DNA from: Candidatus Woesebacteria bacterium GW2011_GWC1_42_9 | GTDB lineage: Bacteria > Patescibacteriota > Microgenomatia > UBA8517 | Direction: 5' to 3' | DNA: 64,000 nucleotides | NCBI GenBank assembly: GCA_000995185.1 | Contig: LCET01000005.1 | Location: 84,277 to 148,276, forward strand | Part shown: positions 58,452 to 63,638 of the stretch, in pieces | Position numbering within the stretch: position 1 is the stretch's first letter | Layout of the letters: each line of letters starts with the position of its first letter | Translations under genes and position numbers: made by a program | Notes under the pieces: model-generated | Database searches by the model: none | The model's input: only the letters and a program-made list of their open reading frames with translations | What the model was told of the DNA's origin: nothing

Positions 58452-58453
58452 CA

Positions 58454-58462
58454 TGGTATAAT
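58454..58462 (+). promoter_or_regulatory. Extended -10 TGGTATAAT
   Basis: This exact 9-mer recurs at 60014 and 60212. The putative transcript has a ~155-nt leader before tRNA-Thr. Confidence 0.45.
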
Positions 58463-58624
58463 GCAGTGACCCCGCCAAGGGGAAATGAGAATATTTTTCC
58501 TGACCGATTACGATTTCGGGAAAGCGGAAGTTCCCGGTGACCCGTGGGTACCGGGACAGCTTACCCACCTGGAGTATCTTCCAGGAAATCTTTCTCAGCA
58601 CCCCGCAAGGCGGGGTTATGGTTC

Positions 58625-60048: not shown

Positions 60049-60210
60049 GCCTGGGTAGCTCAGTGGTAAGCAAAGCTTGGCCTTCGGCTAAAGCAAAGCT
60101 TGGCCTTCGGCTAAAGCAAAGCTTGGCCTTCGGCTAAAGCAAAGCTTGGCCTTCGGTAGAGCACTTTCTTGGTAAGAAAGGGGTCGGTGGTTCGAATCCA
60201 CTCTCAGGCT
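60049..60210 (+). tRNA. tRNA-Thr(GGU) interrupted in the D-loop by a 91-nt tandem-repeat array (possible pseudogene or unusual precursor)
   Basis: GCCTGGGTAGCTCAGTGGTA-[array]-GAGCACTTTCTTGGTAAGAAAGGGGTCGGTGGTTCGAATCCACTCTCAGGCT. Without the array the sequence is a canonical tRNA: acceptor GCCTGGG/CTCAGGC, anticodon loop TTGGTAA, T-loop TTCGAAT. Confidence 0.6.
60068..60158 (+). repeat. Four head-to-tail copies of the 23-nt unit aagcaaagcttggccttcggcta (the last copy lacks one c)
   Basis: Copies at 60068-60090, 60091-60113, 60114-60136 and 60137-60158. Each unit can form a uuggcc/ggcuaa hairpin. There are no spacers, so this is not a CRISPR array. Confidence 0.9.
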
Positions 60211-60211
60211 C

Positions 60212-60220
60212 TGGTATAAT
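60212..60220 (+). promoter_or_regulatory. Extended -10 TGGTATAAT immediately after the tRNA, upstream of rpmG
   Basis: Third exact copy of the element. The rpmG ATG is 8 nt downstream, suggesting a leaderless or short-leader transcript. Confidence 0.4.
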
Positions 60221-60486: not shown

Positions 60487-60645
60487 AATGACCATTTACA
60501 TTAAGGTCAAAAAGTCGTCTGGGAACGGACGGCAAAAATGGTCGCAGGTTAATTTAAAGGATCCGTCGAGGATAAGGCCCACGACATTGCCTTATATTTC
60601 TCTCCCTGACCCAGGACTGAGTCCTGCAACGGATCAGCGGATCTA
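60487..60645 (+). CDS. Candidate 52-aa protein (not in ORF track)
   Basis: Translation MTIYIKVKKSSGNGRQKWSQVNLKDPSRIRPTTLPYISLPDPGLSPATDQRI. Good promoter and SD. Followed by a ggggtag...ctacccc hairpin. Confidence 0.25.
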
Positions 60646-60792
60646 AATTTGAAAAACCTGCGCGCTTAAGGGGTAGCCTTTTTTTACTAGACTACCCCTT
60701 CCCTCCCCTCATGACTTCCGCCACCTCAAATTATGTTATAATAACTCAGTATTTTTCCAATTACCTTAATTTAATTAAAAAGGAGTACTGAA

Positions 60793-61059
60793 ATGTCACT
60801 GATTGGCAAGGTTGATCCAAAATTGGGACAAGCTCCCGAAGGAATGGTTTGGTACAAGTGCGACTGTAGGGGGCGCGACTGCCACAGACGCTTTGTTGTT
60901 AGCGATAAAATCACTAAGGAGTCGGACACCGTATTATATTCCACCGATTGCGATCCGAGGATGATAATCACAGAAAGGATGGTCGTTTCTGAAGACGACA
61001 GAGGTCAAAAAACATATGGTCCTTTGATCGTCTACCAAAATCCTGTCCCAACCGTGTAA
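60793..61059 (+). CDS. Hypothetical protein
   Basis: 88 aa. AAAGGAG SD. Contains CDCRGRDCH and a later Cys. Confidence 0.45.
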   Translation: MSLIGKVDPKLGQAPEGMVWYKCDCRGRDCHRRFVVSDKITKESDTVLYSTDCDPRMIITERMVVSEDDRGQKTYGPLIVYQNPVPTV

Positions 61060-61067
61060 CTTGAATA

Positions 61068-61099
61068 GGGTCTGTCCTCCGGATGGACCCTTCTTTTTT
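61068..61099 (+). terminator. Rho-independent terminator
   Basis: gggtctgtcc-tccg-ggatggaccc followed by a T-run. Confidence 0.55.
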
Positions 61100-61162
61100 C
61101 CCAATATTGTGGTATCATCGTCCCAAGCAGTTTGAAATGTGGGATAGGATAGAAAGGATCTC

Positions 61163-61366
61163 GTGATGGCTACTGAGAATATCCCTAAGCCAAAGCCGAC
61201 CTACCCCGAACGGAATCCTCTCTCCCAAGACGCGATCGACAAAGGGATCAAATGGGCACAATGCAAAATATGCGGCGCGTGGATTATAATCGGCCCAAAA
61301 GCATATGACCTCCTTTGTGCAGTCTGCATGATCAAGGAAGATAGGGAAAAACCGTTCATCGAATAG
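61163..61366 (+). CDS. Small zinc-ribbon-like protein
   Basis: 67 aa with CKICGAW...CAVC. A TGGTATCAT -10-like element sits at 61110-61118. Confidence 0.45.
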   Translation: MMATENIPKPKPTYPERNPLSQDAIDKGIKWAQCKICGAWIIIGPKAYDLLCAVCMIKEDREKPFIE

Positions 61367-61398
61367 CCCCGCTGGCAATACCGCAAAGCGGGGTTTTT
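61365..61398 (+). terminator. Rho-independent terminator (ccccgct...agcgggg + T7)
   Basis: 7-bp GC stem followed by TTTTTTT. Confidence 0.7.
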
Positions 61399-61401
61399 TT
61401 A

Positions 61402-61410
61402 TGGTAAAAT
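61402..61410 (+). promoter_or_regulatory. Extended -10 TGGTAAAAT, 12 nt upstream of the orphan tRNA-Trp 5-prime half
   Basis: Same element and same 12-nt spacing as upstream of tRNA-Leu (2673-2681 to 2693). Confidence 0.45.
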
Positions 61411-61418
61411 AGGGGTCT

Positions 61419-61457
61419 CTTAGGCCTGTAGTGAAATGGCATCACAAGCGTCTCCAA
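61419..61457 (+). repeat. Orphan duplicate of tRNA-Trp positions -3 to 37 (5-prime half through the anticodon CCA and A37)
   Basis: 39/39 identity between 61419-61457 and 61744-61782 (cttaggcctgtagtgaaatggcatcacaagcgtctccaa). The two sequences diverge immediately after tRNA nucleotide 37. Confidence 0.85.
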
Positions 61458-61782
61458 CCCCGCAGTTGCGGGGCGAATCCTTTAGGCTATAATAATTTGT
61501 GTATTACGTTTACGTACTATTAAGCAAGAAGGACAACAATATTTATACCGGTTTTACTTCAGATTTAAGAAGGAGAATTAAAGAGCATAAACTTGGCAAA
61601 GTAAAATCTACTGACAAGAGACGTCCACTTGAACTCATATATTACGAGACTTACAAAAACAAAAATGACGCAAAACATAGAGAAAAATACCTTAAAAGTG
61701 GTGGTAAGGCTAAAAATACGCTAAAATTGCAGATAACAAAATCCTTAGGCCTGTAGTGAAATGGCATCACAAGCGTCTCCAA
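61458..61782 (+). mobile_element. Putative 325-bp insertion carrying a GIY-YIG endonuclease gene and a replacement tRNA-Trp 5-prime half
   Basis: Inferred from the duplication. The segment starts with a ccccgcagttgcgggg hairpin, has a TATAAT at 61486-61491, carries the GIY-YIG ORF, and ends with the tRNA 5-prime half that rejoins the resident 3-prime half. Confidence 0.4.
61499..61756 (+). CDS. GIY-YIG-family nuclease (small UPF0213-type)
   Basis: GTG start. YYVYVLLSKKDNNIYTGFTSDLRRRIKEH is the GIY-YIG motif with the conserved Arg and Glu. The last four codons (SLGL*) are encoded by the first 10 nt of the repeat, including the tRNA-Trp 5-prime end. Confidence 0.75.
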   Translation: MYYVYVLLSKKDNNIYTGFTSDLRRRIKEHKLGKVKSTDKRRPLELIYYETYKNKNDAKHREKYLKSGGKAKNTLKLQITKSLGL

Positions 61783-61820
61783 AACGCTTATTCCAGGTTC
61801 GAATCCTGGCAGGCCTGCCA
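61747..61820 (+). tRNA. tRNA-Trp(CCA), with CCA encoded
   Basis: Acceptor AGGCCTG/CAGGCCT, D-arm GTGA-AATGGCA-TCAC, anticodon stem AGCGT/ACGCT with loop CTCCAAA, T-arm CCAGG-TTCGAAT-CCTGG, discriminator G, then CCA. Confidence 0.9.
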
Positions 61821-61847
61821 TACGGCTCTGATACAATGTAAGCTGAC

Positions 61848-63638
61848 TTGAAGAGTATAAAGAGAAAACTCAATAAATCTTCTAGGAAAGTATTGCTTGG
61901 GTGGGCCGCTATCCTCTTCTTGGCCCTTCTATTAAGGTCGTATGGGCTCAATCTAAACCCGGTTGGAATAAGCCACGACGATGAACTAAATGAAATATTA
62001 AATGCAAAATCAGTGGCTCTAACTCAAACTCAGCGACCAGGTTTTGTTGCCGGAATATTGACGCAAACCGATCAATGCAAATTTATTGGCGACTGCGTAT
62101 ATGGCGAATTAGGAACTTATATTCAAGTTCCGTGGATGTATTTCTCCCCGCTTGGTTTAGCTTTTTCTAGAATATTTTTTGTACTTATCTCTCTTGGGTT
62201 GGTTATTGCTACAGGCAAGTTATTTGAAAACTTTTCTAAAAGTACCACGATTGGCATGATTACAGGATTATTTGTCGCGATTAATCCCTGGGCGATTTAC
62301 TACGGGAGAACCGCGCACACTATTTTGGCATCCCATTTATTCTATTGTCTAGCCGCTTACTATTTCACTCGCCCCAATTCCTATAAATCTAATCTAATAT
62401 TTGGGGGTATAACTGCATTCATTGCATCTTTAATTTACTTTGGAGCAAAACCAATATTACCGCTAATAATTATTTGGGGAGTCTCATACAATTTATATCA
62501 ATTTGGATTTCGCAATATAAAGTTTACTTTTCAATTCCTTTTGGTAGCAATGATCGTGATTGGCGGGTATTTACTGATACTCTCTAATTCGTATGCGGGA
62601 AAAAGGTTTACCGACATAGAGAATGGGCGGCAGGAAAATGTGGGAATAACAATTGAGCTTGGCGGAAGTACTTCTTGGAGGGTAGGCCGACAAGTAGACA
62701 AAGTTACCCCGCGAATAGATAGTTTTCTTGGCTTCTTTTCTGCCTCGTCTTTATTTTTGACCGGACAGAGAGCATCTGACAACTACTATCTTTCGGGGCA
62801 TGGATATTACTATTTGGCAGACTTTATATTTCTAATACTTGGAATAATGGCAATTTCGTCCAGATTTGGGAGGGCAATGTTTATTTTGCTTTTGATTGCG
62901 ATTTCTATCACCCCAACTGCGATTAAGATCTCAGGAACTAGCATTTATTCACACAGGGCTTCACTAGCTTATCCCCTGATTAGCGGCATAATGGCATGGG
63001 GACTTTATTTTTGTTGGAGCAAGGTGCCGGCGAAGCCGTTTCTTGCCAAGATATTTTTACTATCAGCAGCAATCGTCTATTCCGGGTCTTTAATTTATTT
63101 TTTGTTTGTTTATTGGTATCGAAGTCCAGTCGAACAAAGCACGCGCTGGTTTTTCCACGAAAGAGTATTAGCAAGCTATATAACCAGAGTTCAAAAAAAT
63201 AATGAAAATAAAAAACTAATAGTAATCTCGGGACGCCCGGATGGGATTTTTAATTCATATGTTTTCTATAGCGGTGTTTACAATAACAAAGAAGGAATTA
63301 TAGAAATAAACAGTAAATACTTAGAGCGCGATTATGCGTATCGAGGAGCGATGTTCACTGATGATTGCAGTAAGATTGCCCAAGAAGACCTAGCCGAAAA
63401 CATTATTTTTATTGACAAAATCAATAATCCGGAGTGTGAAATTAACTTAGGCAACACCTCCAGAATTTCTAACCCAAGAGACGCGGGGGTGATCTATAAC
63501 ATCGTAAATGACTCCCTTTGTAAAGATTACTCGATTGGCAGATATCCGTACCCAAAAAGTATTCACGACTTTAGCGTAGAAAACCAAACAGATGAAGTCT
63601 TTTGTAAAACTTGGATAACAAATCCAGAAGTTAACTAA
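61848..63638 (+). CDS. GT39/ArnT-like (PMT_2 family) membrane glycosyltransferase, paralogue of 16050-17777
   Basis: TTG start. About 12 TMs. Early acidic loop (SHDDELNE). Large C-terminal soluble domain. Confidence 0.6.
   Translation: MKSIKRKLNKSSRKVLLGWAAILFLALLLRSYGLNLNPVGISHDDELNEILNAKSVALTQTQRPGFVAGILTQTDQCKFIGDCVYGELGTYIQVPWMYFSPLGLAFSRIFFVLISLGLVIATGKLFENFSKSTTIGMITGLFVAINPWAIYYGRTAHTILASHLFYCLAAYYFTRPNSYKSNLIFGGITAFIASLIYFGAKPILPLIIIWGVSYNLYQFGFRNIKFTFQFLLVAMIVIGGYLLILSNSYAGKRFTDIENGRQENVGITIELGGSTSWRVGRQVDKVTPRIDSFLGFFSASSLFLTGQRASDNYYLSGHGYYYLADFIFLILGIMAISSRFGRAMFILLLIAISITPTAIKISGTSIYSHRASLAYPLISGIMAWGLYFCWSKVPAKPFLAKIFLLSAAIVYSGSLIYFLFVYWYRSPVEQSTRWFFHERVLASYITRVQKNNENKKLIVISGRPDGIFNSYVFYSGVYNNKEGIIEINSKYLERDYAYRGAMFTDDCSKIAQEDLAENIIFIDKINNPECEINLGNTSRISNPRDAGVIYNIVNDSLCKDYSIGRYPYPKSIHDFSVENQTDEVFCKTWITNPEVN

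Follow-up and report, generated by a model that had tools for sequence, protein, structure and literature searches.

Introduction

How does the 5′ half of an essential tRNA gene come to lie beside its own promoter, cut off from the remainder of the gene, with a small nuclease gene and then a complete copy of the same tRNA following downstream? The question is raised by a 64,000-nt stretch of DNA from Candidatus Woesebacteria bacterium GW2011_GWC1_42_9, a groundwater member of the candidate phyla radiation (CPR) (GenBank contig LCET01000005.1, positions 84,277 to 148,276; hereafter the window, in whose coordinates positions are given). Here a gene for an 85-amino-acid (aa) GIY-YIG nuclease separates an orphaned half of tRNA-Trp from an intact tRNA-Trp. 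A preliminary description, made from the window alone, had proposed that an element of ~325 bp was inserted in the anticodon loop and brought its own tRNA 5′ half with it. We compared the locus with related loci, and consider it rather probable, with a good measure of doubt remaining, that it harbours a small selfish element, namely a free-standing GIY-YIG nuclease cassette lodged in the single-gene tRNA-Trp locus. The same architecture, in which a tRNA fragment ending in the anticodon loop is followed by a hairpin, a T-loop remnant, the nuclease gene and an intact tRNA, is present in dozens of CPR lineages at tRNA-Trp, tRNA-Cys and tRNA-Tyr.

A 325-bp segment distinguishes filled and empty alleles

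A repeat search at the locus returned a single exact direct repeat of 39 nt, CTTAGGCCTGTAGTGAAATGGCATCACAAGCGTCTCCAA, the two copies of which flank the nuclease open reading frame (ORF) at a spacing of 325 nt (Table 1). The repeat comprises 3 nt of upstream sequence and nt 1–36 of tRNA-Trp, its last base being standard position 37, immediately 3′ of the anticodon. ARAGORN and Rfam both recognise the complete tRNA-Trp that contains the downstream copy, and BLAST of this tRNA against the window recovers the partial copy with E=9e-16. The upstream copy is an orphaned, promoter-proximal 5′ half, which is 100% identical to the downstream one. It lies 11 nt behind the extended -10-like box TGGTAAAAT, a spacing equal to that before tRNA-Leu at 2693, as had been described; a -35/-10 consensus scan gave no match at this box.

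Relatives of the locus were sought through the 581-aa membrane protein encoded downstream of tRNA-Trp. One of them, L089 (ENA ERZ27267809, contig k141_479649), encodes a homologue 95% identical to the window's protein and has the gene order of the window: L33, an 88-aa ORF, a 66-aa ORF, a terminator, TGGTAAAAT, an intact tRNA-Trp and the 581-aa gene. There TGGTAAAAT, its position unchanged, leads straight into a tRNA-Trp (1410–1483) that is identical to the window tRNA and to the orphaned half, with no GIY-YIG gene and no GC hairpin between promoter and tRNA. The difference between the window and L089 amounts to exactly 325 bp at an otherwise collinear site, which supports a clean 325-bp insertion in the window relative to L089 and agrees with the size first proposed. 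The boundaries of this segment are arbitrary within the 39-nt repeat, such that 61419–61743 is an equivalent description. L089 provides the empty site that the preliminary description had suggested looking for, and shows that the duplicate arrangement is not universal in relatives. The terminator-like hairpin upstream is unchanged at the empty site and is thus native flank; the consensus scan did not flag it, presumably because its loop exceeds 8 nt.

Table 1. Features of the tRNA-Trp locus in the window.
Feature	Position	Strand	Remarks
Terminator-like hairpin (CCCCGC...GCGGGG + T7) of the upstream 66/67-aa ORF	61367..61400	+	Sequence reading; identical in L089
TGGTAAAAT, extended -10-like box, candidate native tRNA-Trp promoter	61402..61410	+	Motif and spacing as before tRNA-Leu at 2693
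Direct repeat, copy 1	61419..61457	+	CTT + tRNA-Trp nt 1-36 (standard positions 1-37), ending ...GTCTCCAA in the anticodon loop
325-bp segment, filled allele only	61458..61782	+	Comparison with L089; hairpin, tRNA 3′ remnant, TATAAT, nuclease ORF, tRNA 5′ half
GC palindrome/hairpin CCCCGCAGTTGCGGGG	61458..61473		6-bp stem, 4-nt loop; abuts tRNA position 37
Decayed tRNA 3′ remnant CGAATCCTTTAGGCT	61474..61488	+	Inserted DNA; missing from the L089 empty site
TATAAT box, candidate internal promoter	61488..61493	+	5 nt before the GTG start; sequence reading
85-aa single-domain GIY-YIG nuclease gene, GTG start	61499..61756	+	Pfam PF01541
Direct repeat, copy 2	61744..61782	+	Last bases of the nuclease ORF + tRNA-Trp 1-37; 5′ half of the intact tRNA
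Intact tRNA-Trp, anticodon CCA, CCA end encoded	61747..61820	+	ARAGORN; Rfam RF00005, 64.1 bits

Misassembly can create repeats, and position 37/38 is the canonical site of archaeal and eukaryal tRNA introns, so an assembly artefact or a spliced intron (group I, or archaeal-type at 37/38) might be offered as explanations; we find either scarcely credible. Both repeat copies and both junctions recur in the assemblies of five samples, three from ENA (ERZ27254732, ERZ909588 and ERZ909574) and two from JGI (3300025012 and 3300025015), which rules out an assembly duplication, the second concern of the preliminary description. As for an intron, a complete tRNA lies downstream and needs no splicing, and a covariance-model scan with Rfam over 60500–62500 at E<=10 matched only the tRNA, which is uninterrupted, with no sign of a group I or other intron. 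Two classes of mobile DNA were also considered and rejected. An integrase-mediated tRNA-targeting element would call for a tyrosine or serine recombinase, and the 325-bp insert holds the 85-aa GIY-YIG ORF only. An insertion sequence or miniature inverted-repeat transposable element does not fit a repeat of 39 nt (rather than 2–15 bp) or a unit devoid of terminal inverted repeats, and in related loci the repeat copies come from different tRNAs.

A single-domain nuclease of the UPF0213/Slx1 branch

The encoded protein matches the GIY-YIG domain PF01541 over residues 1–71 (64.7 bits, well above the curated threshold of 22.6; E=9.6e-18), in keeping with its first assignment, and its closest structures are UPF0213 proteins, the family that had been suggested for comparison. 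When a profile of the family was searched against PDB sequences, it matched only the UPF0213 structures 1zg2 (E=5e-12) and 1ywl (3e-9) and, weakly, the SLX1 homologue 7wme (4e-3). A confident AlphaFold2 model (pLDDT 92.5) gave the same picture in Foldseek, where the nearest fold is again 1zg2, followed by At-HIGLE and Slx1-Slx4 (probability 1.0), complexes with branched DNA included; I-TevI (E=0.29) and UvrC (E>1) are distant. Profile and model together place the nuclease in a UPF0213/Slx1-like branch and not with the I-TevI type. Six residues, Y5, Y16, G18, R26, H30 and E62, are invariant in 20 family members and by homology are probably of the catalytic type. The single domain fills the 85 aa and leaves no DNA-binding module that could give long-site specificity. 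Since Slx1-type enzymes cleave branched and stem-loop DNA, it is plausible by analogy that the nuclease recognises structure, be it the cloverleaf of the tRNA gene, a cruciform or the GC palindrome described below.

Homologues are numerous (3744 at E<=1e-5), mostly of ~85 aa, and many are annotated from CPR bacteria; no named equivalent of the family was found in NCBIfam or PHROGs. The family ORFs are intact at ~85 aa. In the window the ORF does end inside the repeat, its stop codon TAG (61754–61756) being tRNA nt 8–10, as was noted at the outset. The accompanying claim that the last four codons derive from the tRNA does not survive the family alignment: the Ser-Leu close to the C-terminus is the nuclease's own, and only Gly-Leu-stop and one further base come from the tRNA. 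The Shine-Dalgarno motif is missing in 45 of 47 related units. The TATAAT box so close to the start codon could give rise to a leaderless or near-leaderless nuclease mRNA, which we keep as a weak inference because a TAnnnT box within 25 nt of the start is present in just 19/47 of those units.

A conserved GC hairpin and a tRNA remnant belong to the element

The preliminary description had taken the sequence that follows the upstream repeat copy to be unrelated to the tRNA, a view that the comparison overturns on two counts. First, the hairpin CCCCGCAGTTGCGGGG, with which the inserted DNA begins on the left when the insertion is placed at 37/38, carries a signature common to the family, CCCCGC-N4-GCGGGG adjoining the anticodon-loop breakpoint. 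Such a hairpin lies <=130 nt upstream of the ORF in 44/47 non-redundant units of the Trp/Cys/Tyr class, and palindromes of this kind are ~100-fold denser within the units (2.16 per kb) than in the remaining sequence of the same loci (0.022 per kb). The stem CCCGC/GCGGG is kept in 41 of these 44. The outermost pair of the hairpin varies in a compensatory manner (C-G in 33, T-A in 10), and the 4-nt centre is variable, mostly NGCN. The hairpin comes immediately after ...GTCTCCAA in 22 of 28 Trp units, as it does in the window, and related Trp loci then resume at tRNA position 54/55 onward. The tRNA-Cys and tRNA-Tyr loci have the same junction, from position 36/37 through the hairpin to 54/55, each with its own 3′ sequence. 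Other hairpin replacements begin after positions 10/11 and 21, with the tRNA resuming at 12, 16–25 or 32/33; all these breakpoints lie near stem/loop junctions of the cloverleaf. The GC hairpin is conserved and integral to this family of elements, and not incidental sequence.

Second, the hairpin is followed by CGAATCCT (61474–61481), which is identical to tRNA positions 54–61 in the T-loop and T-stem, and then by 7 nt that resemble, in decayed form, the acceptor 3′ strand CAGGCCT. The remnant in the window differs at 4 of 17 nt; the layout is shared by related loci whose remnants are better kept, for example 13/13 nt in L006. Because hairpin and CGAATCCT both lie within the DNA that is missing from L089, they are components of the element, not of the resident gene.

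Most likely the hairpin is a site at which the nuclease binds or cuts, or at which the element recombines; the main alternative is a role at the RNA level, in transcript insulation or processing. An intrinsic terminator was considered and set aside, as the hairpin has no T-tail and was not flagged by the terminator scan, the exception being L161, in which T6 follows. On inspection the pseudo-tRNA was also rejected as a functional tRNA-like RNA, since it lacks the 3′ strand of the anticodon stem and the 5′ strand of the T-stem and has only a shortened or decayed acceptor 3′ strand.

The window holds a second GC hairpin with the same stem, ACCCCGC-AAG-GCGGGGT (58600–58616), 8 nt upstream of tRNA-Thr(TGT). 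It and the element hairpin are the only two of their type in the 64 kb. No tRNA fragment was seen next to it, and the region upstream, 58452–58599 (given as ~170 nt), is non-coding and without an Rfam match.

Related nucleases lie beside tRNA and other structured-RNA genes

Eighty homologous loci were taken from species-representative CPR genomes. In 56/80 a tRNA lies <=200 nt from the nuclease gene, always on the same strand; by our own estimate, random placement would give a few percent. The closest relatives (57–73% identity) are found 0–25 nt upstream of tRNA-Trp, tRNA-Cys or tRNA-Tyr, targets whose anticodon stem-loops have GTCT(C/G)(C/T)AAAAC in common and which are intermixed on a rough neighbour-joining tree of the nuclease. 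In 27 of the 47 units the stop of the ORF reaches into the 5′ end of the tRNA, the overlap being 2 or 10 nt in 25 of them.

The constant strand and the overlapping stops would also suit a nuclease that is useful to its host and expressed from tRNA promoters, the association being maintained by selection for signals of expression or processing, with tRNA fragments as by-products of local recombination. UPF0213 proteins occur in many bacteria, and we know of no evidence for their mobility there. Even so, we rate this explanation as very unlikely. The gene is present in one and absent from the other of two relatives at 95% identity, foreign tRNAs lie beside it and arrays of debris exist (see the next section), one family member sits inside an RNase P RNA gene, and the loci examined showed no conserved partner genes.

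Two further subfamilies widen the range of targets. In the second (~90 aa), the gene lies downstream of an intact tRNA of many kinds, with GCTNAGC-based palindromes in between; the tRNA 3′ end and the palindromes are at times repeated after the ORF. A homologous 113-aa ORF directly follows the transfer-messenger RNA (tmRNA) gene in L023 (2568–3340), again with GAGCTGAGCTC-type GCTNAGC palindromes between the two. In the third, the ORF is enclosed in ~20-bp inverted repeats. For example, an 87-aa GIY-YIG ORF with inverted repeats CCCCCACACTTTTGGGGAATA / TATTCCCCAATAGTGTGGGGG lies inside the bacterial RNase P RNA gene of L072 (2898–3550), whose Rfam model is matched at positions 1–367 across 653 nt.

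In the second-subfamily loci L056, L058, L059, L065, L079, L076 and L083 a leader ~20–130 nt after the tRNA is conserved across different tRNA identities. It runs from the tRNA end ...TCACC(A) through palindrome 1 (xGCTNAGCx), GGTGA and palindrome 2 (..CAGCTCAGCTG..) to TCACC; having TCACC on both sides, the middle GGTGA has two possible pairing partners, the tRNA end and the downstream copy.

The contigs of L004, L009, L015, L021, L054, L063 and L064 end ~20–180 nt past the nuclease gene or its tRNA, which suggests that repeated tRNA and hairpin segments break short-read assemblies at such loci.

Elements elsewhere usually carry a foreign tRNA

Whether the element brings only a 5′ half, as was first proposed, or an entire tRNA is indistinguishable in the window, where all tRNA copies are identical. 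The family as a whole speaks for the latter. Of 23 Trp loci in which the stranded fragment could be set against the 5′ half of the adjacent intact tRNA, 2 show 100% identity (the window's species and L129), 2 show 97%, and the remaining 19 only 61–89%; several of the low-identity fragments are a recognisable 5′ half of another tRNA-Trp and not the result of random decay. Because fragment and intact tRNA differ, the intact tRNA arrived with the element in most Trp loci, and the sequences indicate that the element usually brings a whole foreign tRNA. The proposal thus holds in that the tRNA is regenerated, and falls short for the family in the extent of the cargo. The clearest case is L017, in which the resident tRNA-Tyr 5′ part lies upstream of the whole insert and the matching 3′ part downstream of it, while the intact tRNA next to the nuclease has a different acceptor stem. 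Taken together, these sequences argue for a family that travels from genome to genome and takes the place of resident tRNA genes.

Downstream of several intact tRNAs we find 1–3 copies of a composite of anticodon-loop fragment, hairpin, tRNA 55–73 and a 12-nt flank. Such arrays would be the product of successive insertions into a tRNA that was intact at the time.

After the intact tRNA-Trp of L103 (1281–1390), L150 (62–190) and L155 (83–190) these take the form of tandem arrays with a 53–64-nt unit, a layout that recalls a repeat-spacer array. In L161 (~1780–1810), L096, L113, L118, L125 and L156 an intact tRNA-Trp is followed by GTCTCCAA and a hairpin, and our script flagged no nuclease match upstream of the junction; these six may be footprints of lost elements. 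The hairpin of L161 with its T6 has the look of an ordinary terminator.

How the element may spread

We postulate the following route for the selfish cassette. The nuclease would break the DNA in or beside a tRNA gene that is still naive, and would do so at a stem-loop/loop junction, 37/38 for instance; a break at such a junction is favoured because the protein is nearest to the structure-specific Slx1-type nucleases and has no separate DNA-binding domain. Repair of the break would then copy from the element-bearing allele, with the conserved tRNA sequences that flank the cassette serving as short homology arms of ~37 nt. Alternatively, a unit made up of 5′ half, hairpin, 3′ remnant and nuclease could enter by a single crossover in the 5′ half and give the same product. 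Because the cassette carries tRNA sequence, tRNA-Trp is rebuilt downstream of the nuclease, and the resident 5′ half is left stranded beside the native promoter. After insertion the essential tRNA would stand behind the nuclease ORF, probably on one transcript, so that its expression is tied to the element, and imprecise loss of the element would be costly if this is the sole tRNA-Trp gene. More speculatively, RNase P processing could act as a brake on nuclease expression: as the ORF stop so often lies within the first bases of the tRNA (the overlaps of 2 or 10 nt given above), maturation of the tRNA would strip the stop codon from the message.

Several points weigh against this model. The intact tRNA of the filled allele recreates the 37/38 sequence, so that, assuming the target lies within the tRNA, the self-immunity of a homing site is absent, and homology arms of just ~37 nt are short. 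The model does not account for the fresh hairpin that takes the place of positions 38–54 in Trp, Cys and Tyr genes, nor for the hairpins that replace D-arm segments. Evidence for an internal promoter is weak. A literature search found neither a cleavage activity nor a cleavage site for this protein or for any UPF0213 member. Viral contigs contain relatives of only 40–43% identity, none adjoining a tRNA, and a phage vehicle was rejected on these grounds. Finally, all 15 of the 15 contigs from the window's own species (those with an identical upstream 88-aa protein) are filled, with no strain-level polymorphism among them; the empty site was seen only in the 95% relative, and recombination between the two 39-nt repeats could have returned L089 precisely to the empty state, which leaves the direction and recency of the change unproven. 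The likeness to homing endonucleases drawn in the preliminary description must be qualified accordingly: presence and absence in collinear alleles bears it out, whereas a single-domain UPF0213/Slx1-like enzyme with no DNA-binding domain and no evident immunity does not.

Gain in the window lineage and loss in L089 cannot be told apart, because the identity between relatives is mosaic and the contigs of the window's own species are all filled; more distant synteny does not help, since the loci of the 581-aa protein homologues P0124, P0134 and P0141 have no tRNA nearby. The window–L089 mosaic extends throughout, and for this reason an 85% patch just 3′ of the tRNA, examined as a possible co-conversion tract, was dismissed as not distinctive. 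These circumstances, together with a 3′ remnant whose decay makes it older than the perfect 39-nt repeats, are what could be expected of an old, immobile rearrangement, in which a tandem partial duplication of tRNA-Trp trapped a nuclease gene that L089 later lost through the repeats, with no mobility today. We think this quite improbable. The upstream 5′ half is under no constraint and yet 39/39 identical, which points to a recent event or ongoing conversion; moreover, the architecture recurs with different tRNAs and foreign tRNA cargo in many lineages, and the target types are mixed on the nuclease tree.

A stronger competitor, unlikely in our judgement and yet to be taken seriously, places the palindrome at the centre. 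Here the GC hairpin (HP) would be the recognition, cleavage or crossover site of the Slx1-like nuclease, and the mobile unit would be bounded by hairpins, in the order HP, tRNA 55-6x′, nuclease, whole tRNA, short flank, tRNA 30-37′, HP. It would insert into the loops of structured-RNA genes and replace positions 38–54; solo hairpins would be footprints of hairpin–hairpin recombination, and the single-hairpin form of the window would be a deletion derivative between two copies of tRNA 55–73, kept or spread by homologous recombination. Two-hairpin full forms do exist in L006, L008, L010, L017, L018 and L037, with the resident tRNA 1–37 and 55–73 outside, and the arrays of L103, L150 and L155 repeat the element-borne 12-nt flank as nested insertions predict; both are explained better this way than by the cassette model. 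The co-varying stems with their mostly NGCN centre, the other palindromes (GCTNAGC) or 20-bp inverted repeats of the other subfamilies, the ORF-in-hairpin of L072 inside RNase P RNA, the branched-DNA nucleases among the nearest folds, and the mixing of Trp, Cys and Tyr targets on the nuclease tree all agree with it. Against this, only one hairpin lies in the DNA by which the window and L089 differ, and recombination in the 5′ half suffices to explain that difference; a co-varying stem with a free centre would suit an RNA hairpin just as well. Neither this scheme nor the cassette model accounts for the first hairpin to arise in a naive tRNA, or for how self-cutting of the restored tRNA is avoided.

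A bolder extension, possible in our view and still doubtful, is that the 85-aa protein and its cognate GC hairpin represent a new class of mobile element, guided by palindrome or structure, that invades the loops of structured RNAs (tRNA, tmRNA, RNase P RNA and probably rRNA). If so, an essential single-copy tRNA would be replaced by the element's copy and the host made dependent on it, arrays of hairpin-patched pseudo-tRNAs would record successive invasions, and the hairpins would be cleavage or crossover sites, distinct from both classical homing and insertion by transposase or integrase.

Relation to known systems

The selfish cassette that we favour has several partial counterparts. The T4 protein SegB is a free-standing GIY-YIG enzyme that recognises the tRNA T-psi-C motif and spreads with neighbouring tRNA genes; as here, its gene lies among tRNA genes and not in an intron, and is present or absent between close relatives (PMC2330249). 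SegB has extra DNA-binding regions and a 27-bp site and relies on phage co-infection, with no duplicated tRNA halves or hairpin-patched pseudo-tRNAs. It comprises about 220 aa, whereas the protein described here is a catalytic domain alone of 85 aa, of UPF0213/Slx1 type and encoded on a bacterial chromosome.

In the matter of cargo, the closer parallel is with the mobile ORFs (mORFs) of fungal mitochondria, which carry a replacement gene end, as in Allomyces atp6 and Glomus atp6, atp9, cox2 and nad3 (PMC3630166). In both systems an ORF arrives with a part-copy of its target, which restores the gene and turns the native fragment into a leftover duplicate. In fungi this imported copy is often of foreign origin; here the copies in the window are identical and those of 19/23 related Trp loci differ. 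Fungal mORFs affect the 3′ ends of mitochondrial protein-coding genes and encode LAGLIDADG or multi-domain GIY-YIG enzymes, unlike the present case of a bacterial tRNA gene with its 5′ part duplicated and a conserved GC palindrome at the junction. Tyrosine-integrase islands and prophages likewise insert in tRNA genes, restore a tRNA segment and leave a direct repeat. They bring an integrase gene, run to kilobases and as a rule duplicate the 3′ part, in contrast to a 325-bp element with no integrase that duplicates the 5′ half.

Group I introns within the tRNA genes of Patescibacteria and Cyanobacteria resemble the element in host phylum, in their place in the anticodon-loop region and in being selfish; the homing endonucleases that some of them encode are, in that survey, LAGLIDADG, PD-(D/E)XK or HNH and not GIY-YIG, and the survey makes no mention of a tRNA-linked GIY-YIG cassette family (PMC13011429). 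Our element, unlike these introns, has no ribozyme, and the tRNA is restored in DNA and not by splicing. CPR rRNA genes contain non-intron insertions that encode GIY-YIG proteins (PMC11270868), and thus share with our loci the CPR host, GIY-YIG ORFs in structural-RNA genes and the lack of intron features; tRNA association, a hairpin signature and a restoring duplication were not reported for them. They are probably related to the ORF-in-hairpin subfamily of L072.

By sequence and fold, the closest proteins are UPF0213 (BH0048, EF2693) and Slx1/HIGLE, which have the catalytic-type residues in common with the nuclease. Slx1 has the partner Slx4 and a RING/PHD-type domain, the UPF0213 structures are without an assigned function, and none of the three is known as mobile or tRNA-linked. 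Full-text literature searches found no description of tRNA-linked UPF0213/GIY-YIG cassettes or of hairpin-patched pseudo-tRNAs. The element is thus akin to free-standing homing-type nuclease ORFs that restore their target, from which the palindrome, the 5′ duplication, the UPF0213/Slx1 enzyme and the pseudo-tRNA debris set it apart.

Consequences for small genomes and their annotation

With a catalytic-domain nuclease, one hairpin and borrowed tRNA sequence, the element would be, to our knowledge, the smallest of its kind. CPR genomes are ~1 Mb in size, and the locus suggests how selfish DNA could persist in such minimal genomes: an essential, universally conserved gene that is entered and then rebuilt offers a safe site, whatever the genome, with ready homology arms, and an element within it may be hard to lose. 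It would also give the uncharacterised UPF0213 family a candidate biological role. For annotation, the family accounts for pseudo-tRNA debris that could cause confusion, and it may add to contig breaks by tRNA genes in CPR assemblies, given that many homologue contigs are short or end ~100 nt past the gene. Should the nuclease be guided by the hairpin, it would be a very small programmable or structure-specific enzyme of possible interest as a tool.

An interrupted tRNA-Thr gene in the window

At 60049–60212 the window contains a tRNA-Thr(GGT) that is broken in the D-loop after ...GGTA (~position 21) by a 23-nt tandem repeat, AGCAAAGCTTGGCCTTCGGCTAA, of 4.2 copies according to TRF (60068–60163). 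Neither ARAGORN nor Rfam calls this interrupted tRNA, and L089 has an uninterrupted tRNA-Thr(GGT) at 121–193. The number of exact AGCAAAGCTTGGCCTTCGGCTAA units varies within the species, from 3 in the window (counted by eye) to 4 or 5 in the contigs fetched. It is broken at a point where a hairpin also interrupts nuclease-linked pseudo-tRNAs.

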